A stretch of 64,000 nucleotides of DNA, taken from IMG/VR virus record IMGVR_UViG_3300025133_000048, positions 1-64,000 of that record; one strand, given 5' to 3'. Each line of letters starts with the position of its first letter. The stretch's first letter is position 1. A program made the translations under genes and the position numbers. The notes under the pieces were generated by a model, which was given only the letters and a program-made list of their open reading frames with translations, searched no databases and was not told the origin of the DNA. Source of the DNA: a virus. Shown one piece after another: positions 11,492-23,558 of the stretch.

Positions 11492-11520
11492 TTGACAATC
11501 TCACGATTACATGTTATATT
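11492..11520 (+). promoter_or_regulatory. sigma70-type promoter
   Basis: TTGACA-17 bp-TATATT preceded by TGT. Confidence 0.75.
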
Positions 11521-11543: not shown

Positions 11544-12218
11544 ATGAAATGGGTTTCAAATTCCATTAATGAATCAAAAGCTTTAAAGGATCATTATAAG
11601 TTGTATGGCATAGATATTATAATTAAAGACAGTCTACCTAAACAGATTGACGTTGGTTTTGTTGTGAAATATATCACAACAAGAATTCCACACTTTCTAC
11701 TGTCTGGCATTGATATAATCTACATCGGACAGTTTGACATGCTTATAAATAAAGAAGTAAATGCCCTCTATGAAGATGGTGCCATTTATGTAACTAATGA
11801 CCAACAAGATGAAATGGATATGATTGATGACATTGTACATGAGCTTGCTCATGCTGTTGAAAATACTTATTCCGAAATTATCTATGGAGATGAGCTTTTG
11901 GAAAGAGAGTTTTTATTAAAAAAGCACCAATTGATCAATGTCTTAGCATCCAGTAAACAACCTTCACCACCAGCACAGTTTCGTTTCTCCTTGGGATTTG
12001 ATCAAGAAGTAGACGATTATCTTTATAAGGAATTGGGATATACAGCACTATGGAATTATGTTGTTGGTATTTTTCCATCACCCTATTCAGCTACATCCAT
12101 AAGAGAATATTTTGCTCGTGGGTTTGAAGAATTTTATATAGGAGAGAAAAAGAGCTTGACAAAAAACAATAGTGTGTTATATTCTAAGCTACAAGAACTT
12201 GCTGACTTGGAGGACTAA
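11544..12218 (+). CDS. HExxH zinc-metallopeptidase-like protein
   Basis: VHELAHAVE with downstream EYFARGFE (third-ligand motif of lethal-factor/PPEP-like zincins). Confidence 0.6.
   Translation: MKWVSNSINESKALKDHYKLYGIDIIIKDSLPKQIDVGFVVKYITTRIPHFLLSGIDIIYIGQFDMLINKEVNALYEDGAIYVTNDQQDEMDMIDDIVHELAHAVENTYSEIIYGDELLEREFLLKKHQLINVLASSKQPSPPAQFRFSLGFDQEVDDYLYKELGYTALWNYVVGIFPSPYSATSIREYFARGFEEFYIGEKKSLTKNNSVLYSKLQELADLED
12156..12183 (+). promoter_or_regulatory. sigma70-type promoter inside the 3' end of the upstream gene
   Basis: TTGACA-16 bp-TATATT preceded by TGT; GGAGG RBS before ATG 12218. Confidence 0.65.
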
Positions 12219-13000: not shown

Positions 13001-13049
13001 AAAAAAGTTTAACTTTTTTCTTGACAACCTTAATTTAGTATGTTATATT
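13001..13049 (+). promoter_or_regulatory. sigma70-type promoter of the glycan operon with an upstream palindrome
   Basis: AAAAAAGTT-T-AACTTTTTT (13001-13019), then TTGACA(13021)-17 bp-TATATT. Confidence 0.75.
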
Positions 13050-13078: not shown

Positions 13079-14338
13079 TTGTCAAAGAAAAAGATTTTAA
13101 CACTTTCCGACCATCCTCTATCACCGTCTGGTGTTGGAACCCAAACAAAGTACATTTGTGAGGCTCTTCTCAACACTGGGCGGTATTCTGTTTTGAGCTT
13201 TGGCGGAGCAATGAAACATCAGGATTATAATCCAATCCAAGTTGAGCCTTATGGCGAAGACTGGAGAATTATTCCTGTTGACGGTTATGGAACAGCAGAA
13301 ATGATACGTTCCGTAATCCGAACTGAAAAACCAGACATGATTTGGTTTATGACCGATCCCCGATTCTGGGGATGGCTATGGGAGATTGAAAATGAAATTA
13401 GGCCAATTTGCCCGATGGTATATTACCATGTGTGGGACAACTATCCTTATCCTCATTTCAACCGGAACTATTATTTGTCTAACGACCATGTTGTCACTAT
13501 CTCTAAAGTTACTGATGATATCGTTAGAACAGTAGCACCGGAAGTTGCATGCACTTATATTCCGCATGCAGTTAATCCCGATGTGTTCAAGCCATTGTTG
13601 CCTTCCGAGGTAGCAAAAATACGCGAGGATACTCTTCCGGAAGAAGACCGTGACAAGGTCATTTTCTTTTGGAATAATCGCAATGCTCGCCGCAAGCAAT
13701 CAGGCACACTCATTTGGTGGTTTAAAGAGTGGCTTGATAAAAAGGATTTGCATGATAAAGCACAACTTATTATGCATACCGAACCGAAAGATCCACACGG
13801 TCAGGATCTGGAACACATCATAAACCACCTTGGGTTGGAACAACGTCAGATCCTCCTCTCCACTCAGAAGCTACCTCCCGAACAGCTCGCGGCCTTATAT
13901 AATATGGTAGATTGTACCATTAACATATCTGATGCTGAAGGTTTTGGCTTAGCAACTCTTGAATCGCTTTCCTGCGGCACGCCCATTATCGCCACTATGA
14001 CAGGTGGGCTTCAAGAGCAAGTCACAGACGGTACTGAGTGGTACGGCGTTGGTATCCAACCCTCTTCTAAGTCTATTATTGGATCTCAACAGGTTCCTTA
14101 CATTTATGAAGATAGAATTTCAAAAGCACAGTTCCACTCTGCCTTAACGAAGCTATACTCAATGGGTAATGAAAACCGCAGAGAAATAGGTGCCAAAGGT
14201 CGCCAACATGTACTTGACAATTACAATTTTGTTAATTTTCAAAGATATTGGGTAGATCTTGTTGATGAGGTTCTAGAATCAGGATCTTGGGAAACAAGAA
14301 ATGGTTACAACGGCATTAGATTTAAGGAGATCGCATGA
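13079..14338 (+). CDS. GT-B (GT4 family) glycosyltransferase
   Basis: SDHPLSPSGVGTQ, NRNARRKQ, EGFGLATLESLSCGTPII (EX7E). Confidence 0.9.
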   Translation: MSKKKILTLSDHPLSPSGVGTQTKYICEALLNTGRYSVLSFGGAMKHQDYNPIQVEPYGEDWRIIPVDGYGTAEMIRSVIRTEKPDMIWFMTDPRFWGWLWEIENEIRPICPMVYYHVWDNYPYPHFNRNYYLSNDHVVTISKVTDDIVRTVAPEVACTYIPHAVNPDVFKPLLPSEVAKIREDTLPEEDRDKVIFFWNNRNARRKQSGTLIWWFKEWLDKKDLHDKAQLIMHTEPKDPHGQDLEHIINHLGLEQRQILLSTQKLPPEQLAALYNMVDCTINISDAEGFGLATLESLSCGTPIIATMTGGLQEQVTDGTEWYGVGIQPSSKSIIGSQQVPYIYEDRISKAQFHSALTKLYSMGNENRREIGAKGRQHVLDNYNFVNFQRYWVDLVDEVLESGSWETRNGYNGIRFKEIA

Positions 14339-15579
14339 AAAAGAAAATTTACGTAAGAGGGCCGGTATTATCACAATCCGGATACGGAGAACAAGCAAGG
14401 TTTGCTCTTCGCGCACTAAGAAGCCGAGAAGACCTCTTTGACATTTATGTTCAGCCAATCAACTGGGGCAAAACCGGTTGGATTTGGGAACAAAGTGAAT
14501 TTAGAGAATGGCTCGATGAACGAATAACAGAAACTCAGGTTCAGTTACAGCAAGGATTACTACAACCAGACATTAGTTTGCAAGTTACAATTCCAAATGA
14601 ATTTGAAAAGATTTGTCCTGTAAACATAGGATACACAGCAGGCATTGAAACAACAAAATGCTCCCCACAGTGGCTATTAAAATGTAACGAAATGGATAAG
14701 GTACTTGTGGTGTCAAATCATGCAAGAACATCTATTATTGATACGGTTGCCGATGCAACAAACCAACAGACTGGCGAGGTAGTTCCATACCGATGTGAGA
14801 CTCCATTGGAGGTTGTGTGGGAAAGCACCGTACGATCCGAACCGGAAGAGATTGAAAGTTTTGATTTAGAATTTGAAAACAACTTTCTCATGGTATCTCA
14901 GCTGGGTCCACGAAAGAACTTTGAAAATGCACTAACATGGTGGGTTGAAGAGTTTGTTGATAAAGAGGTTGGCTTAGTCGTTAAGACCAACTTTAAAAGT
15001 AATTGTATTATGGATTTTACGATGGTAGAGGGACATCTTCAAACACTCCTATCTAAATATCCAGATAGAAAATGTAAAGTACATCTCCTCCATGGAGACC
15101 TATCAGCAGGTCAAATGACTTGGTTGTATGGACACCCGAAGGTCAAAGCACTTGTCAATATTTCACATGGCGAGGGTTTTGGCCTTCCTTTGTTTGAAGC
15201 TGCGAGAGAGGGTTTGCCGATTATTGCAACTGGCTGGTCTGGTCAATTGGACTTTCTTCACCATGAAGGGAAGGATTACTTCCAATCGGTTGACTATACA
15301 CTGCAACCAGTACAGAAACAGGCTGTGTGGAAAGGTGTTATCGAACCTGATTCGATGTGGGCATTTGCTGATCAAGGAAGCTACAAGATGACTCTTAGAA
15401 AGACTTTGAAGAACTTGGACGGATGTCAGGAGACTGCTGGAGAATTACAGGCTCTTCTTGTTGATAAGTTTGATGACAATAAGTTGTTTGAAGGGTTTGT
15501 GACATCAATTTATGGTGACGTGATAACTATTGATTCTTGGCTTGAGGAATTGGAGAGCACCATGGTGGAAAATGACTAA
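14335..15579 (+). CDS. GT-B (GT4 family) glycosyltransferase
   Basis: SQSGYG, PRKN, SHGEGFGLPLFEAAREGLPIIATGWSG. Confidence 0.9.
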   Translation: MKKKIYVRGPVLSQSGYGEQARFALRALRSREDLFDIYVQPINWGKTGWIWEQSEFREWLDERITETQVQLQQGLLQPDISLQVTIPNEFEKICPVNIGYTAGIETTKCSPQWLLKCNEMDKVLVVSNHARTSIIDTVADATNQQTGEVVPYRCETPLEVVWESTVRSEPEEIESFDLEFENNFLMVSQLGPRKNFENALTWWVEEFVDKEVGLVVKTNFKSNCIMDFTMVEGHLQTLLSKYPDRKCKVHLLHGDLSAGQMTWLYGHPKVKALVNISHGEGFGLPLFEAAREGLPIIATGWSGQLDFLHHEGKDYFQSVDYTLQPVQKQAVWKGVIEPDSMWAFADQGSYKMTLRKTLKNLDGCQETAGELQALLVDKFDDNKLFEGFVTSIYGDVITIDSWLEELESTMVEND

Positions 15580-16414
15580 TGTCGTGTATCTTTCTGACAC
15601 CCTATTATCAGATGTAGTTGGCGGAGGAGAGTTGAATGATTACGAACTTTGTTTAGAATTAGCAAACAGAGGACTCAATGTTCAAAGGCTTAGAACTTTT
15701 CAAATATTAGAAGACCATACTGATACAGCATGTTTTTATATAATATCAAATTTTGTTATGCTAAACAGCAGGGTTTTAGATAAGATTCAAAACACTTGTG
15801 ATTACATTATATACGAACATGATCACAAGTATTTAAAAAACAGAAACCCAGCAAAATTTAAAAACTACAAGGCACCCCATAACATGATTATCAACCATAA
15901 ATTCTATAAAAATGCCAAGGCAGTGCTTTGCCAAAGCACTTTTCATGAGTCAATAATAAAGAAAAATTTAAATCTTGACAACCTACACAATGTATCAGGT
16001 AATTTATGGTCTCTAGATTCACTAAGAATGATGAAAACGTTAAGCAAAAAGCAAAAAAAAGATTGCTTTTCTATCATGAACTCTCCCATCAGTCACAAGA
16101 ACACAAAAGAGACTTGTTTTTATTGTGATAAAAAAGACTACAAGTATGAATTAATCTCATCAAAAAATTATGAGGAGTTTTTAAGTTTGCTGTCTAATAA
16201 TGAAAAATTTATATTTTTACCAAAAACACCCGAAACCCTGTCTAGAGTTGTAGTTGAAGCAAGAATGATGAACATAAGTGTTACCACAAATAAGAGAGTT
16301 GGCGCCTCTTATGAAGATTGGTTTCAGCTAAAAGGCGAAGAGTTGATTGACCACATGCTCAACAAAAGACAAGAAATAGTGAATAATCTTATGGAGGTAA
16401 TTAATGCAAAATAA
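15572..16414 (+). CDS. Divergent GT-B-like glycosyltransferase
   Basis: GGGELND near the N-terminus, YEHDH, PETLSRVVVEARMM (EX7E-like). Confidence 0.6.
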   Translation: MTNVVYLSDTLLSDVVGGGELNDYELCLELANRGLNVQRLRTFQILEDHTDTACFYIISNFVMLNSRVLDKIQNTCDYIIYEHDHKYLKNRNPAKFKNYKAPHNMIINHKFYKNAKAVLCQSTFHESIIKKNLNLDNLHNVSGNLWSLDSLRMMKTLSKKQKKDCFSIMNSPISHKNTKETCFYCDKKDYKYELISSKNYEEFLSLLSNNEKFIFLPKTPETLSRVVVEARMMNISVTTNKRVGASYEDWFQLKGEELIDHMLNKRQEIVNNLMEVINAK

Positions 16415-17144
16415 ATTTGTTGTGATAATCCCATTTTATAATGTTTCTAAAACTATCAAAAAAACTTTTAATTCTGTGGCTATACAAGATTATGATAATT
16501 ATGAAGCGTATTTTATCGACGATATGAGCACAGATAACTCTAATCATGTTTTAAGCAACTTGATTAGAAATCATTCAAAAATAAATTTAATTAGCAATGT
16601 TGAAAAAAAATACTCTTTAAAAAACATTTATGATACTGTACACAATAAAACATCAGACAACGATATTATTGTTATTTTAGATGGTGATGATTTCTTTTAC
16701 GGAAAGAGCGTATTTTCTATTCTAAATGAACGCTATAATAAGTTTGGCTGTTGGCTTACATATGGAAGCTATATTAATTTATCCACCAAAACAAGAGGAA
16801 AATTTAGCTCTAAAACACCTCAACATATTATTGATTCAAATTCTTTTAGAGAGTACAAATGGAGCACTTCACACCTTAGAACGTTCAAGTCATTTTTGTT
16901 TAAAAGCATAAAACAACATAGTTTAATTAACGAACAAGGAAATTTTTACTCTATTACAGGAGATCTAGCTATTATGTTTCCAATGTTAGAGATGGCTGGT
17001 AATAATAGTTTGTATATAAATGAATTACTTTATGTTTGGAATGATACAAATGTTTTAAATGATCATAAAAAAAATAACAAACTTCAACTAGAGGTTGAAA
17101 AAAAGCTTAGGAGGTCTGCCAAATATGAAAAACTTTTTAAATAG
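16404..17144 (+). CDS. GT2-family glycosyltransferase
   Basis: VIIPFYN, IDDMSTD, LDGDD (DXD). Confidence 0.9.
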   Translation: MQNKFVVIIPFYNVSKTIKKTFNSVAIQDYDNYEAYFIDDMSTDNSNHVLSNLIRNHSKINLISNVEKKYSLKNIYDTVHNKTSDNDIIVILDGDDFFYGKSVFSILNERYNKFGCWLTYGSYINLSTKTRGKFSSKTPQHIIDSNSFREYKWSTSHLRTFKSFLFKSIKQHSLINEQGNFYSITGDLAIMFPMLEMAGNNSLYINELLYVWNDTNVLNDHKKNNKLQLEVEKKLRRSAKYEKLFK

Positions 17145-17985
17145 TGATGAAAAAATATTAATATTTGGAGGAACTGGGTTTTTAGGAAAAGAGTTACTCC
17201 GGATATTATATAAGCAAAATAAAAATATAACCCTGTTTGCTAGAGATGAGGGAAAATTAATTGAATTAAAACAGTCCTTCCCAGAAATTGATATTGTAAC
17301 AGGCGATATTTCAGATAAGTTTGAAGTTTATCAAGCGATGAAAGATAAAAGCTATATTTTTCACTTAGCGGCGTTTAAGCATGTTGGATTAGCAGAAAAA
17401 TATTCTAGAGAATGTATTAAAACAAATCTAATAGGTTCGTTAAATATCTTGGAATGCTCACTAACAACTCTCCCAAATGTTTTAATTACAACGAGCACTG
17501 ACAAGGCTGCACAAATTAATGGAGTGTACGGCGCAACAAAATACTTGGTTGAAGAATTGTTTAAGCAATTTGAAAAAGTGAACACCACAACTCAATACAG
17601 AGTAGTCAGGTACGGTAACGTATTGTATTCAACAGGGTCGGTTCTGTGTAAGTGGAAAAAACTCATAAAAGAAGGAAAAGAAGTGATCATAACAGATCCC
17701 GAAGCTACCAGATTCTTTTGGACTGTATCCGAAGCAGTCAACCTTTTGTTTGAATGTATCGAAAAGTCAAAAGATGCAACGCCTTACTGTCCACATATGA
17801 AGTCTATGTCGATGGGCAATTTGTTGTCCGCAATGATACAGAAGTATGCTAATGATAAAAAAATTATAGTTAAAACAATTGGCCTACAACAGGGAGAAAA
17901 CAAACATGAAAAGATTCTTAAAAATGGTCCATCCTCTGATCAAGTGCAAAAATTTACTGTTGAAGAAATTAAGGAGTTAATATGA
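17125..17985 (+). CDS. UDP-GlcNAc 4,6-dehydratase-like SDR enzyme (PseB/CapD, Polysacc_synt_2 family)
   Basis: GGTGFLG, HLAAFKHV, STDKA, YGATK, RYGNV..S.GSV, TRFF; GGAGG RBS before ATG 17125. Confidence 0.88.
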   Translation: MKNFLNSDEKILIFGGTGFLGKELLRILYKQNKNITLFARDEGKLIELKQSFPEIDIVTGDISDKFEVYQAMKDKSYIFHLAAFKHVGLAEKYSRECIKTNLIGSLNILECSLTTLPNVLITTSTDKAAQINGVYGATKYLVEELFKQFEKVNTTTQYRVVRYGNVLYSTGSVLCKWKKLIKEGKEVIITDPEATRFFWTVSEAVNLLFECIEKSKDATPYCPHMKSMSMGNLLSAMIQKYANDKKIIVKTIGLQQGENKHEKILKNGPSSDQVQKFTVEEIKELI

Positions 17986-18767
17986 CATATAAATCATTTA
18001 AAGGTGAATGGGAGATGTGCCAAGAAGATGGCTTGGAGGATCTATTTCTCAAAGAATGTGAAAAAATCTGTCTTGATGAGAGTAAGTTTGCGAATTTTAA
18101 AAGAAGCCCAATTTTTACAAAAATTATTGGAAACGATGTGAGATCAAAAGACATTAGCGATATTTGGTATGCTTTTTTAAAAAACACAGAAATGATGGAA
18201 AAAATAAAAAAATATAAAACAAATGATATTTTTGGAAACCCAATTTGCTATTATTATCCAAAAACAGGCATTATAAGTCCCGGGACTCTTTATTTTTTAT
18301 CAATCACACATGATATAAATACAAGATTAGTTAACATAAAAAATAAAAAAATTTGTGAAATTGGATCTGGCTATGGTGGGCAATCTAAAATATTTCTTGA
18401 TTATGGATGTAAAGAAGTTGACTTGATAGATAGAAAGCAAACACTAGGATTGGCTAAAAAATATCTAGACATGTTTAAGTATAAAAATACTTGTTTTCAC
18501 CCCACAACTAGCATACCAGAAAAGGAATATGATATAGTCGTTTCGAATTGGTGTGTTTCTGAGCTGGATAAAAAAGGTGCTTCGTTTTATTTAGATAATG
18601 TGATAAAAAAAAGTCAATATGGATATTTCTTGACAAACCACAGAAGTGAAGAAAAAAAAGATTGGTTTATAGGTGAATTAAAAAAAATTTATTCTAATGT
18701 GGTAATAGAAGAAGAGAATCCAAAAACAAATGAGAAAACAAACTATGCAATATTGTGTAAAAAATAA
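17982..18767 (+). CDS. Putative sugar O-methyltransferase (SAM-dependent)
   Basis: ICEIGSGYGG SAM motif; YDIVVSNWCVSEL. Confidence 0.75.
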   Translation: MTYKSFKGEWEMCQEDGLEDLFLKECEKICLDESKFANFKRSPIFTKIIGNDVRSKDISDIWYAFLKNTEMMEKIKKYKTNDIFGNPICYYYPKTGIISPGTLYFLSITHDINTRLVNIKNKKICEIGSGYGGQSKIFLDYGCKEVDLIDRKQTLGLAKKYLDMFKYKNTCFHPTTSIPEKEYDIVVSNWCVSELDKKGASFYLDNVIKKSQYGYFLTNHRSEEKKDWFIGELKKIYSNVVIEEENPKTNEKTNYAILCKK

Positions 18768-19638
18768 GATTCCAAAAATCATCATGCCAATATGTGATGA
18801 GACTCTTTATACTCTAAAGATGTCTTCATATTTGTTTGATAAATATTGGCCAAGCCAAACAAAAATAGATGTTATAGGATTCAAGAAACCGGATTTTGAG
18901 ATTAGTTCTAAAATGAATTTCGTATCAATAGATATTCAACAGAAAGGTGGAGCCAAGAGTTGGTCTAAGTATATTTTACAATATTTACAACAAGTACAGG
19001 AGGAACAGATCATTTTTACCTTGGAGGATTTTTTTCCAACAAAAGAGCCCAATTTGAATTTATTAAATAGTGTAAACCAGCTTCTTAAAAAAGATAAAAA
19101 AATTGGAAGATTTGATTTGACTTATGACTCTTATACTTACGGGCAATACAATGTTTTAAAAAACATAAAAAATTTAACATTAATATGTAAAGAAAGATAT
19201 ACAGATTATAGAGTTTCTACACAACCATCTTTGTGGAATAAGGATTTTTTAATTGAAATTTTAAAGAACACGACATCTCCATGGGATTTTGAAATCAATG
19301 GTACAAAATATAGCAATGTTTTGAATTATCAAGTGTTAGCCTTTGCAGATGAAACATATAATAATTTCCCTACATATTGGATTCACAAAGGAGCGGTGTC
19401 TAGACAATGTCCTGAAAAAATTAATATATTAGGAATAGACATAGATACAATAAAAGAAATGGTCACATTAGGATTATTTAAAGAAGATCAATTGGTTTGG
19501 GGAATGTGGAGTGGAGGAAACATGCCTAAATTTCATGAACTAGGTGGTTACGATTTTGATTTAAGCAAAATGCCCCATCATGATTCTTCTAGGACCAACT
19601 GGAAGGAATACGAAAATATTTACGGAGATAAAAAATGA
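18730..19638 (+). CDS. Putative glycosyltransferase-like protein
   Basis: IIFTLEDFF (EDx motif) and STQPSLWNKDFL...SPWDFE pattern, recalled from capsule/LPS cluster proteins. Confidence 0.5.
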   Translation: MRKQTMQYCVKNKIPKIIMPICDETLYTLKMSSYLFDKYWPSQTKIDVIGFKKPDFEISSKMNFVSIDIQQKGGAKSWSKYILQYLQQVQEEQIIFTLEDFFPTKEPNLNLLNSVNQLLKKDKKIGRFDLTYDSYTYGQYNVLKNIKNLTLICKERYTDYRVSTQPSLWNKDFLIEILKNTTSPWDFEINGTKYSNVLNYQVLAFADETYNNFPTYWIHKGAVSRQCPEKINILGIDIDTIKEMVTLGLFKEDQLVWGMWSGGNMPKFHELGGYDFDLSKMPHHDSSRTNWKEYENIYGDKK

Positions 19639-20924
19639 AAAAAACAGTTTATGCTGGGATGTGTGCTGATATATTGCACAATGGACATATCAATATTTTA
19701 AAAGAGGCTAGTAAGCATGGCTACGTGATAGTTGGGCTACTAAGTGATGAAGCAATAAGTGATTATAAAAGAACTCCATTTATGTCATTTCAACAAAGAA
19801 AAGAAATACTTGAGAGCTTAAAATTCGTAGACACTGTTGTAAAACAAAATACACTAGACTATACAGAGAACTTAGTAAAATTAAAACCAGATTATGTTAT
19901 TCATGGTGATGATTGGAGACAAGGTACACAAAAAAATACTAGGGACAACGTTATTGATACATTAAAGGGATGGAACGGACAGTTGATTGAAATCCCTTAT
20001 ACAAAAAACATATCGTCAACAATATTAAATAACGTCCAAAAAAAGAAAGGAACAACGGTAGAAATTAGAAGATCAAAGTTAAGAAAAAATTTAAATTTAA
20101 AAAAAATGACAAGAATCATAGAAGCTCATAATGGCTTAACAGGCTTGATGGTTGAAAAAGCAAGTAAAAATAATAAAGAGTTTGATGGAATGTGGTTAAG
20201 TAGTTTGACCCACTCCACTGTAAAAGGAAAACCAGATATACAATATATCGACATCACCACGATCTCACAAACGATAAATGAGATATTTGATGTCACAACC
20301 AAACCCATGATCGTAGATTTAGACAACGGCGGAAAAATTGAACATTTTAGATTTTCGGTAAAAACACTAGAAAGATTGGGAGTTTCTGCTGTAATAATAG
20401 AGGATAAAGTGGGAATTAAAAGAAATTCTTTATTTGAAGATACAAGCAATCAAAGACAAGACGATGTAGGCTCATTTTGCCATAAGATAAAAGAAGGAAA
20501 AAAATCTACTATAACAAAAGACTTCATGATAATAGCCAGAATAGAGAGTTTAATCTTAAATAAAGGTGTAGAAGACGCATTAATCAGAGCAAAAAAATAT
20601 GTAGAAAGCGGAGCCGATGGCATAATGATACATAGCAAAATGAAAAAATCAGATGAAATAGAACACTTTTGCAAAGAATTTAGAAAAAAAGATCCTAATA
20701 CACCTCTAATAGTCGTACCAACAACCTATAACCACATAGATGAAGAACAATTGCATTTATTGGGGGTAAATTTGGTTATTTATGCCAATCATTTATTGAG
20801 AAGTTCTTACCCTTCTATGTTAAAAGTAATGAACATGATTTTAGAAAACAGCAGATCTTATGAGTGTGACCCTTTTTGTATGCCAATAAAGGAAATAATA
20901 AAATTAATTCCGGAGAGTGATTAA
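19635..20924 (+). CDS. pepM: Phosphoenolpyruvate mutase with an N-terminal cytidylyltransferase domain
   Basis: N-terminal ADILHNGH (HxGH) and HGDDW CTase motifs; EAHNGLTG, MIVDLDNGG and the diagnostic EDK-X5-NS (EDKVGIKRNS); IARIES; ADGIMIHS. Confidence 0.95.
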   Translation: MKKTVYAGMCADILHNGHINILKEASKHGYVIVGLLSDEAISDYKRTPFMSFQQRKEILESLKFVDTVVKQNTLDYTENLVKLKPDYVIHGDDWRQGTQKNTRDNVIDTLKGWNGQLIEIPYTKNISSTILNNVQKKKGTTVEIRRSKLRKNLNLKKMTRIIEAHNGLTGLMVEKASKNNKEFDGMWLSSLTHSTVKGKPDIQYIDITTISQTINEIFDVTTKPMIVDLDNGGKIEHFRFSVKTLERLGVSAVIIEDKVGIKRNSLFEDTSNQRQDDVGSFCHKIKEGKKSTITKDFMIIARIESLILNKGVEDALIRAKKYVESGADGIMIHSKMKKSDEIEHFCKEFRKKDPNTPLIVVPTTYNHIDEEQLHLLGVNLVIYANHLLRSSYPSMLKVMNMILENSRSYECDPFCMPIKEIIKLIPESD

Positions 20925-21953
20925 GTGAATATTAATTGTTTTTTATTTGACGCTTTACAATATGATGAAGATATCAAAAACTCCTTAACTAGTAAGACAC
21001 TAGACTACAGAACTTGTGTTACTAACAGTTTTACAACAACTTCGTTGGTTTCGTTCTTTAGCGGATTGTTACCAAGCAAAATAAATAAATTGGGAATAGG
21101 TTATGGTAGTGTTTATTCAAAATTAAACGAAGAAGAAAAATCTGTATGGGATAGTAAAATAATTTTAAACTCATTAGACGATAGTTGGGAAATAAATTAT
21201 TTATCAGATGATAAGAATATAGATTTTTTAGAAAATGAATGTTTTACAGTAAATAAAAAAGTCAACAAAATAATATATAAAAGTTTTATTGATGAAAAGA
21301 AAAAGATAGAAGATCTACTAAAACATAAAAAGAAAAATAGATTAAATTTTATAAAATTAAATCATCTTCATGATGCTTATGATTGTAATAGTGAGTTTTT
21401 TACAAAAACAAAGGATGCAAAAAAAATGTTTGAGGAAATAATTAATTTTATAGATTTTGAACAAGATGACACTTTGTTTTGGTTCTTTGGAGATCATGGA
21501 AACTGGGCTTATATAGATAAATATATGACACCTCCTCACTCTACAATTTGTTGGTCTGCTATAAAAAACAATATAAAGCAAATTGAAGATAATAGACAAA
21601 TAGCTCATATTACTGATTTTGCCCACTATTTTAACAATTTAGTATACAACAAGAGTACCAACTTTATGAAAGAGTTTTATTATTCGGAAGATGGAAGAGG
21701 AGCAATAGATAATACACAGACAACTACTTTTTCTGTGTTATGTGAAATGGAAGCTAATGTTCTATATCAACTAAGCTATCATGCTGTGACTAAAGAGTAT
21801 AAATTTTTTAGATTTGACTATGAAAAACAGAAAACAATAGACTTTGATAAAAATGTTAAAAAAGAAAATGTTGCAATTTTACGCAAAAAATTATATGAGG
21901 TATATCATGAAAGAATTAAAAATTTTCAACGACAAAATAATAGAAGAGTATGA
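20925..21953 (+). CDS. Alkaline-phosphatase/sulfatase-superfamily protein (candidate phosphonate transferase)
   Basis: FLFDALQYD metal Asp, SFTTTSLVSFFSG nucleophile region (Thr, no CxPxR), HLHD, FGDHG. Confidence 0.65.
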   Translation: MNINCFLFDALQYDEDIKNSLTSKTLDYRTCVTNSFTTTSLVSFFSGLLPSKINKLGIGYGSVYSKLNEEEKSVWDSKIILNSLDDSWEINYLSDDKNIDFLENECFTVNKKVNKIIYKSFIDEKKKIEDLLKHKKKNRLNFIKLNHLHDAYDCNSEFFTKTKDAKKMFEEIINFIDFEQDDTLFWFFGDHGNWAYIDKYMTPPHSTICWSAIKNNIKQIEDNRQIAHITDFAHYFNNLVYNKSTNFMKEFYYSEDGRGAIDNTQTTTFSVLCEMEANVLYQLSYHAVTKEYKFFRFDYEKQKTIDFDKNVKKENVAILRKKLYEVYHERIKNFQRQNNRRV

Positions 21954-22305
21954 TTTCTTCACAGGGGTACCAGACAGTGCCTTAAAAAATTTAATAAAAA
22001 AAATAGATCAATCTGAAAAACAACATGTTGTTGCTGTCAATGAAGGACAAGCAATTGCAATTGCATTTGGAGCCATGCTTGCAGGTAAAAAAGCTTGTGT
22101 CTATATGCAAAATTCTGGTATAGGCAATGCAATTAATCCAATAACTAGTTTATGTATCCCATGTGGTGTCTGTCCTTTTATAATAATAGGACACAGGCAT
22201 ACATTGGAACAACATAAAATAATGGGTCTGATAGATGATGAAATTATGAAACTTATAGGTTATAAAAATTATTATATCTATAAAGGAGAGAACAATGTTA
22301 AGTAG
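21907..22305 (+). CDS. Phosphonopyruvate decarboxylase, N-terminal (Pyr) subunit
   Basis: FFTGVPDS.LK, VNEGQAIAIAFG, YMQNSGIGNAINP, QHKIMG. Confidence 0.9.
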   Translation: MKELKIFNDKIIEEYDFFTGVPDSALKNLIKKIDQSEKQHVVAVNEGQAIAIAFGAMLAGKKACVYMQNSGIGNAINPITSLCIPCGVCPFIIIGHRHTLEQHKIMGLIDDEIMKLIGYKNYYIYKGENNVK

Positions 22306-22753
22306 AAAGCAAGCAATAGAAGATATTTTTAAAACACACAAAAAAGAAGCAGTCTATATTGTTCCTACTGGTTTTATTTCTCGAGCGGTGGAAACAATCT
22401 TTCCAAATGACAAGAATATCTTTTATATGCAAGGAAGCATGGGTTTGGCACCTAGCATAGGCTTAGGAGCTTCTTTATGTACTGAGAAGAACATCGTTGT
22501 AATCACAGGCGATGCTAGTCTATTAATGCATCTAGGATCTACACACACAATTAGAGACTATTCTAAAGGTAATTTATTTGTCTATGTTTTAGATAATGGT
22601 TGCCATGAATCAGTTGGAGGTCAATGGTGTTCCAGCCTTCAGGAGTCATATGTTGGTGTAGATGAAATTTACAAAATTTCATGTGACGGAAAAGAACAAA
22701 GAGTGAATATAGGATTTGAACAAAATGCAAGAAACATTATTAATATGCTCTAA
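22295..22753 (+). CDS. Phosphonopyruvate decarboxylase, C-terminal TPP-binding subunit
   Basis: TGFISR, FYMQGSMGLA, GDASLLMHLG...DNGCHESVGGQ (GDG-X-NN TPP motif). Confidence 0.9.
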   Translation: MLSRKQAIEDIFKTHKKEAVYIVPTGFISRAVETIFPNDKNIFYMQGSMGLAPSIGLGASLCTEKNIVVITGDASLLMHLGSTHTIRDYSKGNLFVYVLDNGCHESVGGQWCSSLQESYVGVDEIYKISCDGKEQRVNIGFEQNARNIINML

Positions 22754-23558
22754 ATCAACTAGAGAGTACTTTCCTGATATAAAAAAACATATCATAGTGA
22801 GTGGTAAGTTGCAACATAATCATTTAAAAATGAACAAAACAAAAAATAGAGTAATAGCTGTTGGTGGAGGAGCGGTAATAGATATGGCAAAAATTATATC
22901 TCAAGGAGAATTAGTATGCTACCCAACAACAGCCTCTGGAGCATGTTACACTTCACATTCGGTTATTTGGAAAGATAAGAAAAAGCTAAGTGTTAAAACC
23001 AGGAAAGCTAGTAGTGTGGTGATTGAAGAGTCTTTTTTGAATACTTTGCCTGAAGATGTAATTAATGATACAAAGTGTGATTTATTGAGTCATTGTATCG
23101 ATAGTATCAATTCTGTTGATACAAATAAAGAAAGTGAATCATTGATATTGGAATCATTAGAGATATTAAAATCAAGCAACTCACTATATGACTTAATCTA
23201 TGCTGGAAATTTAGCTGGTATGGCTATTGAGATTACCCCAACAACTATTTTACATTCTTTATCTTATCCTTTAACTGGATATTATGGTTTTTCACATGGT
23301 AGAGCTTTGGGTCTATTATTACCTATTATTTCTGAAATGATAGATTTTGATTTAGATAAGTATGCGACACCTGTAGTGTGTCTAGATAAAGTGGTTGATT
23401 TTGATTTTGTTGTCAATCAAGCCAAATCAACAAGAAAATTTAAGAATTTCAAAAGAGAACTTGATCTAAAAAAATTGGTTTATCTTTTAAAAAAGCGCTA
23501 TGGATTTGACAATTCTGATAATCTATGTTATAATAAAAATTTTAAGGAGAAAAAATGA
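22725..23558 (+). CDS. Iron-containing alcohol dehydrogenase, probable phosphonoacetaldehyde reductase (PhpC/FomC-like)
   Basis: AVGGGAVIDMAK, PTTASG, DLLSHCIDS, HSLSYPLT, SHGRA metal ligands; adjacent to pepM and ppd. Confidence 0.85.
   Translation: MQETLLICSKSTREYFPDIKKHIIVSGKLQHNHLKMNKTKNRVIAVGGGAVIDMAKIISQGELVCYPTTASGACYTSHSVIWKDKKKLSVKTRKASSVVIEESFLNTLPEDVINDTKCDLLSHCIDSINSVDTNKESESLILESLEILKSSNSLYDLIYAGNLAGMAIEITPTTILHSLSYPLTGYYGFSHGRALGLLLPIISEMIDFDLDKYATPVVCLDKVVDFDFVVNQAKSTRKFKNFKRELDLKKLVYLLKKRYGFDNSDNLCYNKNFKEKK
23506..23534 (+). promoter_or_regulatory. sigma70-type promoter
   Basis: TTGACA-17 bp-TATAAT preceded by TGT; AAGGAG RBS before ATG 23555. Confidence 0.8.

Follow-up and report, generated by a model that had tools for sequence, protein, structure and literature searches.

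Can a tailed phage make compounds with a carbon-phosphorus (C-P) bond, and what would it use them for? This question is raised by five genes at positions 19635-23558 of a 64,000-nucleotide stretch of viral DNA (hereafter the window), which is the first 64 kb of IMG/VR virus record IMGVR_UViG_3300025133_000048 (96,389 bp, CheckV completeness 53%). Phosphonates account for much of the dissolved organic phosphorus in the sea, and aerobic methane production is fuelled by them; they come from sources known only in part, and their synthesis is treated as a cellular trait (PMC8931226). The viral phosphonate genes reported in the literature are degradative, and no account of a tailed phage with a pathway for phosphonate biosynthesis turned up in the literature searched. 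Here the five genes are predicted to form a working, phage-adapted version of the cellular tailoring pathway based on 2-hydroxyethylphosphonate (HEP); we infer all of its catalytic activities.

A preliminary description of the window, made without database searches, had placed in a phage genome a cytidylyltransferase (CyTase) fused to phosphoenolpyruvate (PEP) mutase (PepM), a protein of the alkaline phosphatase (AlkP) superfamily, a two-subunit phosphonopyruvate decarboxylase (Ppd) and an iron-dependent alcohol dehydrogenase (Fe-ADH), together leading to CMP-HEP. It proposed profile searches, phylogenies and searches of viral databases, and named three findings that would undo it: an assembly chimeric with host DNA, a PepM that is really a non-mutase enzyme of the isocitrate lyase family, and a decarboxylase acting on sulfopyruvate. 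It did not mention the small size of Ppd and the ADH, the presence of the cassette in further viral contigs or its exchange for 2-aminoethylphosphonate-type cassettes in relatives. Loci fetched for comparison are given below as L followed by a number.

Catalytic domains of the cassette

The five genes lie on the plus strand, at the positions originally described, with overlapping or abutting stops and starts, and complete the 3′ end of the operon (Table 1). The two domains of the CyTase-PepM fusion were matched by PF01467 (residues 10-131, E 4.4e-15) and PF13714 (residues 153-402). The TIGR02320 PEP_mutase model scored 381.5 bits, above its equivalog cut-off of 319.55, and the models for phosphonopyruvate hydrolase and methylisocitrate lyase stayed far under their own cut-offs. 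The motif EDKVGIKRNS has the form EDK-X5-NS, a signature by which Ppm is told apart from the rest of the isocitrate lyase superfamily (Rice et al., 2019; PMC6697681). In an alignment with Mytilus PepM (1m1b) it falls on EDKLFPKTNS, and the D, DxD, EDK..NS, ARxE and HSK segments of the two proteins are identically aligned. A non-mutase enzyme is contradicted by the passed cut-off and the kept motif. The CyTase domain carries HNGH at residues 15-18, a nucleotidyltransferase motif of the HxGH type, and its best match among solved structures was the CyTase domain of Fom1 (5x3d, E 1.9e-45, residues 3-135), so that the fusion stands as first described. Specificity for HEP and CTP is suggested by the similarity to Fom1 and by the co-encoded ADH.

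In a tree of 97 PepM sequences the window's protein fell inside a clade of 15 viral sequences (SH-aLRT 100), on a long branch whose exact place within the clade is uncertain. A second viral clade held three sequences. Set against cellular homologues, viral PepMs thus form clades of their own. Two members of the second clade were inspected for their neighbours: at L001:917-2862, nonulosonic-acid genes (for a NeuB-like synthase and a CMP-sugar synthetase) and a methyltransferase gene lie directly upstream of the cassette, and at L092:5494-6342 a similarly sized 282-aa open reading frame (ORF) occupies the corresponding upstream position.

Ppd is encoded in two pieces, an alpha subunit with the PYR domain and a beta subunit with the PP domain. 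The ORF listed for alpha (21844-22305) overlaps the preceding gene; its likely start is the ATG at 21907, in agreement with the N-termini of relatives. Both halves scored higher with the Ppd model TIGR03297 than with the sulfopyruvate decarboxylase models (alpha, 105.3 against 65.6 bits with sulfopyruvate-alpha; beta, 93.3 against 83.5 bits), and both had 9iz3 as their best match in the PDB. The two-subunit assignment is borne out by these results, and by model score a sulfopyruvate substrate is disfavoured for either half. The halves miss the TIGR03297 equivalog cut-off of 312.5 bits, a value set for a 360-position single-chain model of which about 90 positions are absent from the two halves taken together. 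The cofactor-activating glutamate of alpha lies in NEG, and N45, E46 and G47 are invariant in alignment A1. The thiamine diphosphate (ThDP) motif of beta reads GDAS...LDNG, with G72, D73, D100, N101 and G102 invariant among three viral sequences (alignment A2). The two-subunit Ppd in PDB entries 9iz3 and 9iz4 (alpha 181 aa, beta 186 aa) likewise has its PYR and PP domains on separate chains, with the glutamate and ThDP motifs conserved; in the virus alpha is shorter by about 50 aa and beta by about 35 aa, and the C-terminal parts do not align.

The last gene encodes a short Fe-ADH. Its top NCBIfam match was TIGR03405 Phn_Fe-ADH, at 71.8 bits against an equivalog cut-off of 423.7, which was not passed. 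The protein is about 100 aa shorter than its cellular homologues (full length is normally about 355-390 aa). What is lost relative to 1vhd is some 50 residues at the N-terminus, a loop of about 20 that follows the GGGS helix, and a portion of the C-terminus. It retains the NAD and metal motifs GGGAVID, PTTASG, D-x3-H (CDLLSH) and H-x13-H, its group-III motifs align with the Fe-ADH of T. maritima, and H177 and H191 are invariant in the viral alignment. The proposed profile searches thus gave a divided answer: PepM passed its cut-off and the Ppd and Fe-ADH models were the best matches of their proteins, but the Ppd halves and the Fe-ADH remained under the equivalog cut-offs.

Homologues of the short Fe-ADH were found in 21 viral sequences (252-270 aa). 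In a collection of 5.8 billion proteins the family comprised 238 clusters at E≤1e-10; the 120 listed were all 219-277 aa long, many of them from Tara. One short-ADH cluster was labelled as a gammaproteobacterial metagenome-assembled genome (MAG), and the proposal that the compact form is strictly viral was not adopted.

Recurrence and selection in viral contigs

When IMG/VR was scanned with the Ppd-beta alignment, 24 viral contigs of up to 189 kb proved to have a split Ppd. In 19 of them CyTase-PepM (56-63% identical), PpdA, PpdB and the short ADH (37-47% identical) occur in the same order, with sizes of 121-145 aa for PpdA, 151-164 aa for PpdB and 252-270 aa for the ADH. The search for syntenic clusters in viral databases was therefore positive. 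The ppd genes lie near or next to pepM in the window, in the 24 viral contigs and in cellular loci. Between closer contig pairs all five genes, the AlkP-like one included, had dN/dS values of 0.03-0.25; they are under purifying selection. In other viral contigs the cassette stands amid genes for NeuB, CMP-sugar synthetase, UDP-glucose dehydrogenase, GT9, FdtA, DegT, C-methyltransferase and carbamoyltransferase.

The closest syntenic phages carry a different cassette in the slot used by the window, of a 2-aminoethylphosphonate (AEP) type (L090:6760-10433, L107:5307-9844 and L108:5015-9865). In it PepM (289 aa, 30-33% identical) and the PF01467 cytidylyltransferase each stand alone, Ppd is split as in the window, and a short class-V aminotransferase is also encoded. 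L090 adds a LicD-like gene, and L107 a PhyH dioxygenase and a methyltransferase, which hint at hydroxylated or methylated AEP. Since the closest relatives hold this cassette in the same place, the slot between exonuclease and late sigma factor reads as a glycan island in which the phosphonate head-group module has been exchanged, and a drop in GC content near 16 kb fits this. No class-V aminotransferase or radical-SAM (S-adenosylmethionine) gene was found in the record (genes of the MpnS/HEPD type were not specifically searched for); the absence of an AEP transaminase, first remarked on for the window, thus extends to the whole record.

A nucleotide search of the cassette against 50,697 phage records gave only a 7% match, and no cultured phage carries it. 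Some candidate phage examples were set aside. MT837901 (L005) and MT836947 (L006), faecal contigs labelled 'UNVERIFIED: Bacteriophage sp.' in GenBank, are probably bacterial: their CyTase-PepM groups with Lachnospiraceae and Fibrobacter, and L006 encodes a full-length Ppd of 376 aa, an AEP transaminase and a YidC-TagF fusion. The PepM matches in Vibrio phage Va2 and Acinetobacter phage MD-2021a were 25-28% identical over half the protein, and the Acinetobacter phage gene is annotated as methylisocitrate lyase.

The AlkP/sulfatase-fold protein

The gene between pepM and ppd encodes a protein without a Pfam or NCBIfam match at E≤10, PF00884 and PF01663 included. A word-indexed search found one homologue (P0002, 59% identity). 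A pattern scan of IMG/VR gave nothing; further homologues came from tblastn in the loci fetched with Ppd-beta, and one (25-31% identical) lies directly upstream of pepM in 12 other viral contigs. A first AlphaFold2 model built from two sequences (pLDDT 48, weak Foldseek rows) was superseded by a model from 11 sequences with pLDDT 84.7 and pTM 0.89. Foldseek matches of this model include YejM, LtaS and BcsG alongside sulfatases, and by Z the S1 sulfatases equal or exceed the phospho-alcohol transferases. The ESM Atlas supported an AlkP-like fold (TM 0.75), and the model has the core alpha/beta fold of the alkaline phosphatase superfamily.

Ten residues are invariant among the 11 family members: D9, T37, H147, H149, D190, H191, E255, D256, R258 and H286. 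In the model D9, T37, D190 and H191 occupy the secondary-structure positions expected for a metal-site Asp after strand 1, a nucleophile where the next helix begins and a DH(G) motif, and they may converge on a metal site. The formylglycine motif C/S-x-P-x-R is absent; the window has T-T-T-S-L in its place, and relatives have T-V-P-T or T-V-N-T. With the sulfatase CxPxR thus replaced by T-x-x-(T/S), the threonine is the likely nucleophile.

Genomic context points to a biosynthetic role for the family. IMGVR_UViG_3300030106_006270 (L109:5241-7646) contains an uninterrupted ORF of 801 aa that joins the AlkP-like domain to CyTase-PepM, and this triple fusion links the orphan family to phosphonate synthesis. 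In L104, L105 and L103, where the AlkP-like gene is missing, a TagF-like PF04464 gene stands in its position (E 9e-19 in both L104 and L105, E 2.8e-5 in L103). A profile search of 1.84 billion proteins returned 155 clusters of the family, some of them fused (P0167, P0184, P0180, P0188, P0207 and P0263) to GT2 with or without TPR repeats (up to 1282 aa), to DegT aminotransferase or to LicD. The GT2 and DegT fusions confirm that the family takes part in glycan synthesis. The AlkP-like protein was found in none of the scored cellular phosphonate loci.

The phospho-alcohol transferases of the superfamily (LtaS, EptA/EptC, BcsG, GacH) and the YejM/PbgA domain are membrane-anchored, whereas the phage protein is soluble and 10-14% identical to them. 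Its presumed donor also differs from that of LtaS/EptA-type transferases, being a CMP-phosphonate instead of a membrane lipid.

Cellular loci and known systems

For comparison, 80 cellular loci with a CyTase-PepM fusion (PepM 49-61% identical) were collected from Spirochaetota, Bacteroidota, Bacillota, DPANN archaea and others. Ppd and Fe-ADH were present in 59 of the 80, so the HEP module is a common cellular one. Ppd was a single ORF in all 70 scorable loci (about 360-400 aa where stand-alone), and the full-length ADH ORFs were all at least 332 aa. The commonest extra neighbour was a TagF-like PF04464 gene (20 loci). Several cellular loci have fused enzymes, which runs opposite to the splitting and shrinking seen in viruses: L052:2637-4460 encodes a PF12804 nucleotidyltransferase-ADH fusion of 607 aa (by Pfam), and Ppd and ADH matches lie within one ORF (by tblastn) at L045:7303-9411 (702 aa), L058:2633-4858 (741 aa) and L035:5959-9585 (1208 aa).

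Among Ppm proteins, 23.6% are CyTase-PepM (PF01467-Ppm) fusions (Rice et al., 2019; PMC6697681), and among ppm neighbourhoods, 8.5% are of the HEP type (Li and Horsman, 2022; PMC8942020). Cellular phosphonyl-tailoring (Pnt) clusters (PMC6697681; PMC8942020) share with the phage the fusion type, the PepM-Ppd-ADH set and a glycan or cell-surface setting. They differ in having a one-piece Ppd, a full-length ADH and a TagF-like PF04464 partner where the phage has the AlkP-like protein.

Fom1, Fom2 and FomC of Streptomyces carry out the first steps of fosfomycin synthesis (PMC6697681), and CMP-HEP has been demonstrated as the product of the Fom1 CyTase domain (Cho et al., 2017, as cited in PMC6697681). 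This early pathway in Streptomyces wedmorensis (Fom1 CyTase-PepM, Fom2 Ppd, FomC Fe-ADH) has four activities and the fusion in common with the phage. The phage version has Ppd in two shortened pieces and an ADH smaller by about 100 aa, and it sits in a glycan operon instead of an antibiotic cluster. The record also lacks the radical SAM methyltransferase Fom3 (homologues of FomD and Fom4 were not searched for), and because of this CMP-HEP is probably the end donor here and not a transient intermediate.

Outside cells, Ppm was found in none of 364 huge-phage genomes or the RefSeq viruses, and once in a metagenomic contig of a nucleocytoplasmic large DNA virus (NCLDV), as a Ppm-Ppd fusion in an AEP cluster (GCF 881; Li and Horsman, 2022; PMC8942020). 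A PepM-cytidylyltransferase fusion has been noted in Borgs (PMC12660748). Both are non-cellular elements with ppm beside glycan genes, as in the phage, but an NCLDV is a eukaryotic giant virus and a Borg an archaeal extrachromosomal element, neither is a tailed phage, and neither has the compact split Ppd and short ADH. Cells are thus known to carry out this chemistry; in the literature searched there is no description of a viral setting for it, of such miniaturised enzymes or of an AlkP-like partner.

The glycan operon and its phage setting

The cassette forms the last part of a 10.5-kb block (13079-23558) of 12 genes, in which each start overlaps or abuts the preceding stop (Table 1). The promoter at 13021 occupies an 85-bp gap, the sole sizeable one ahead of the island. 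Consensus promoters bracket the block, which therefore looks like a single transcription unit read by host polymerase; the promoters are known as consensus matches only. Four matches to TTGACA-N16/17-TATAAT (11-12 of 12 positions) were found in all, each on the plus strand just upstream of a gene start (11492-11520, 12156-12183, 13021-13049 and 23506-23534), and three of the four have the extended -10 TG. These matches suggest a host with canonical sigma-70 and not the Bacteroidota type of promoter.

Table 1. Features of the glycan operon and its bracketing promoters (coordinates in the window).
Feature	Coordinates	Strand	Basis and remarks
Sigma-70-like promoter, TTGACA-17-TATATT, TG extended	13021..13049	+	11/12 consensus matches; putative function
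GT4 glycosyltransferase a	13079..14338	+	PF00534 E 7e-15; phrog_2170; 57-60% identical to syntenic L090 and L107 genes
GT4 glycosyltransferase b	14335..15579	+	weak PF20706/PF00534; phrog_2170; 45-50% identical in L090 and L107
294-aa protein, GT2-like by clustering	15530..16414	+	no Pfam match; clusters with GT2 family F21; 48% identical in L107
GT2 glycosyltransferase	16404..17144	+	PF00535 E 1e-15
PseB/CapD-like nucleotide-sugar 4,6-dehydratase	17095..17985	+	PF02719 E 5.5e-63; TIGR03589 180 bits, under equivalog cut-off
SAM methyltransferase, NanM-like putative sugar O-methyltransferase	17982..18767	+	TIGR04371 E 8.6e-10, 38.6 bits against cut-off 44
302-aa protein, uncharacterised glycan-associated family	18730..19638	+	stop overlaps pepM start; 33 homologues
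Fom1-type cytidylyltransferase (residues 1-135) fused to PEP mutase (residues 145-429), 429 aa	19635..20924	+	
AlkP/sulfatase-fold protein, 342 aa, Thr at nucleophile position; candidate phosphonyl transferase	20925..21953	+	between pepM and ppd
Ppd alpha subunit (PYR domain), 132 aa	21907..22305	+	TIGR03297 105.3 bits; PDB 9iz3_A E 5e-16
Ppd beta subunit (PP domain), 152 aa	22295..22753	+	TIGR03297 93.3 bits; PDB 9iz3_B E 3e-21
Short Fe-dependent alcohol dehydrogenase, phosphonoacetaldehyde reductase type, 277-280 aa	22716/22725..23558	+	TIGR03405, PF25137/PF13685
Sigma-70-like promoter, perfect TTGACA-17-TATAAT, opens next transcription unit	23506..23534	+	12/12 consensus matches; 3′ end of ADH gene

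None of the 12 island proteins contains a hydrophobic segment of transmembrane strength; the top 19-residue hydrophobicity score among them was 1.85, in PpdA, for the stretch INPITSLCIPCGVCPFIII, which contains cysteine and proline. Searches of the 96-kb record for Bac_transf, WecA-type and Wzx genes gave none. The two GT4 proteins were checked by Pfam as possible TagF-like PF04464 proteins, and this was ruled out. The ESM Atlas groups the 302-aa protein with hypothetical clusters from viruses and bacteria. Its family has a typical length of about 290 aa and includes Tara sequences, and two homologues are fused to a GT10 fucosyltransferase domain (PF00852). No homologue was found in the other phosphonate loci fetched, cellular or viral, and because of this absence the 302-aa protein is not favoured as the transferase.

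The surroundings are those of a large, uncultured T4-like phage, in line with the preliminary description's baseplate and late sigma genes. Every substantial ORF of the window is on the plus strand, and a search for tRNA genes gave none. The island is flanked on the left by a PhoH-like gene (phrog_2765, E 1e-112) and an exonuclease gene, and on the right by genes for a gp55-like late sigma factor and gp25-like and gp6-like baseplate wedge proteins. The gp6-like protein is 30-32% identical over its full length to those of Flavobacterium phage immuto, Microcystis phage Mel-JY01 and a 484-kb uncultured phage, and at 87 kb the record has a gene for a major capsid protein of the gp23 type (PF07068, 207.7 bits). 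GC content is 0.28-0.34 from about 16 kb to 24 kb and about 0.38 elsewhere in the window.

Four viral contigs (L088, L090, L107 and L108) are syntenic with the window across the island borders. The order at the left border is exonuclease, GT4a, GT4b, 294-aa protein and GT2, and at the right border 82-aa gene, 159-aa gene, late sigma factor and 95-aa gene. The junction of exonuclease with GT4a is reproduced in L090, and that of the cassette with the 82-aa gene, 159-aa gene and late sigma factor in L088, L107 and L108. As both junctions recur in independent viral assemblies, a chimera with host DNA is very unlikely. Just left of the exonuclease gene, a 224-aa ORF (11544-12218) matched PF07737, the anthrax lethal factor N/C-terminal domain family, weakly and below cut-off (E 0.007), and the Peptidase_M90 metallopeptidase family PF06167 likewise weakly (E 0.1); a homologue at 42% identity occupies the equivalent place in L090.

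Proposed pathway and alternatives

With each enzyme assignment upheld, the route originally outlined, an established one that runs from PepM through Ppd and Fe-ADH to HEP and by a Fom1-type CyTase to CMP-HEP, is supported at the level of predicted function. The PepM domain would convert PEP to phosphonopyruvate. The two-subunit ThDP decarboxylase would turn this into phosphonoacetaldehyde, pulling the unfavourable PepM equilibrium forward, and the short Fe-ADH would reduce the aldehyde to HEP. The N-terminal CyTase domain would then join HEP and CTP to give CMP-HEP. From this donor the HEP-phosphonyl group would pass to a hydroxyl of a small O-methylated glycan of the 6-deoxy-N-acetylhexosamine type, which the products of the operon's seven upstream genes would build in the host cytoplasm during infection. 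The likeliest candidate for the transferase is the AlkP-like protein, whose Thr37 would carry the phosphonyl group in a covalent intermediate, in the manner of LtaS, EptA and BcsG with phospho-alcohols. The absence from the record of genes for other branch points (aminotransferase, radical SAM, TagF and LicD) was counted in favour of HEP. Since the island proteins are soluble and the record has neither a lipid-carrier priming enzyme nor a flippase, the glycan would be destined for a phage structural protein or another cytoplasmic target and not for a Wzx/Wzy-type polysaccharide. Synthesis of CMP-HEP followed by glycan tagging is considered probable. The role of the AlkP-like protein as phosphonyl transferase is a possibility held with some reserve, and a virion protein as acceptor is put forward yet more tentatively. 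That the AlkP-like protein founds a class of soluble, CMP-phosphonate-dependent phosphonyl transferases, and that T4-like aquatic phages put C-P groups on virion glycoproteins, is a speculative extension and on balance unlikely.

Several points weigh against this pathway. Both Ppd (132 and 152 aa against about 375 aa) and Fe-ADH (277 aa against about 370 aa) are much smaller than any characterised enzyme and score below the NCBIfam equivalog cut-offs. The AlkP-like protein had no sequence match to any solved structure, either by phmmer or with an 11-member profile against the PDB. PF04991 (LicD) and PF04464 (TagF) had no match at E≤0.01 across the 96-kb record, which is 53% complete, and a gene of either type could sit in its unseen half. 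The LicD-fused members of the AlkP-like family hint at work alongside a LicD-type transferase and not in its stead. The activities of the pathway and its acceptor are predictions drawn from sequence, context and models.

The pathway could operate as described with the AlkP-like protein serving as a hydrolase. It might be a nucleotide phosphodiesterase, or an esterase acting on phosphonate mono- or diesters, with a part in trimming, editing or recycling phosphonyl groups or in freeing HEP from CMP-HEP. The true transferase would then be the 302-aa or the 294-aa protein, the product of a gene in the unsequenced half, or a host enzyme. The lost CxPxR motif speaks against this, with a threonine in its place as in transferases and nucleotide pyrophosphatases/phosphodiesterases (NPPs); the L109 ORF that includes CyTase-PepM, and the way AlkP-like and TagF-like genes alternate in one position, fit a biosynthetic step, and destruction of the operon's own product would be odd unless host material is the substrate. 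We regard a hydrolase as somewhat unlikely. A different destination for the glycan has also to be weighed. Seroconverting phages are well known, and the phosphonylated glycan might be placed on the host envelope (lipopolysaccharide, capsule or a surface glycoprotein) and not on the virion, remodelling the surface of the infected cell, for instance to block superinfection or to resist phosphatases and grazers. The sigma-70-like promoter, which suggests early or middle expression by host RNA polymerase, is compatible with this, and in cells phosphonoglycans are found at the surface, where they have been proposed to reduce mortality from viruses and grazing (PMC8931226). Neither the island nor the record holds a lipid-carrier priming enzyme, flippase, polymerase or membrane protein, although host machinery could export the product, and a long-term surface change is of little use to a lytic T4-like phage. 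An envelope target is a serious alternative, if on balance unlikely.

Two further explanations dispense with glycan tagging. The cassette might have nothing to do with the glycosyltransferases beside it and make free HEP or CMP-HEP, either on the way to a small-molecule phosphonate (an antimetabolite) or to store phosphorus as a sink. It is true that Fom1, Fom2 and FomC open fosfomycin synthesis in Streptomyces (PMC6697681), but the record has no Fom3-type radical SAM enzyme (the epoxidase and other tailoring genes were not searched for), the cassette sits among sugar-nucleotide and glycosyltransferase genes in every viral contig examined, and its cellular relatives are paired with TagF-like transferases. 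A free product is accordingly improbable. It might also be asked whether cellular DNA was misassembled into a viral contig, or whether the genes are decaying remnants, in which case the small Ppd and ADH would reflect truncation and not adaptation. The lower GC content of the island and enzymes far shorter than the cellular ones could be so explained. Against this, both junctions are reproduced in independent assemblies, the catalytic motifs are intact, and the short lengths recur in more than 20 contigs at 37-67% identity and with dN/dS of 0.03-0.25; misassembly or decay is hardly credible.

Implications

A conserved pathway under purifying selection in at least 24 viral contigs would add viruses to the producers of phosphonates. 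The compact ADH family is present in metagenomes (238 clusters, many from Tara Oceans), on contigs that may be viral or cellular. For enzymology, the viral Ppd and Fe-ADH are the smallest known scaffolds, and the uncharacterised AlkP-fold family is a candidate for the poorly known step of phosphonyl transfer. Phage glycobiology would gain a new, phosphatase-resistant decoration. If virions are indeed tagged in this way, infected cells and released virions would be an unrecognised source of phosphonate in natural waters.

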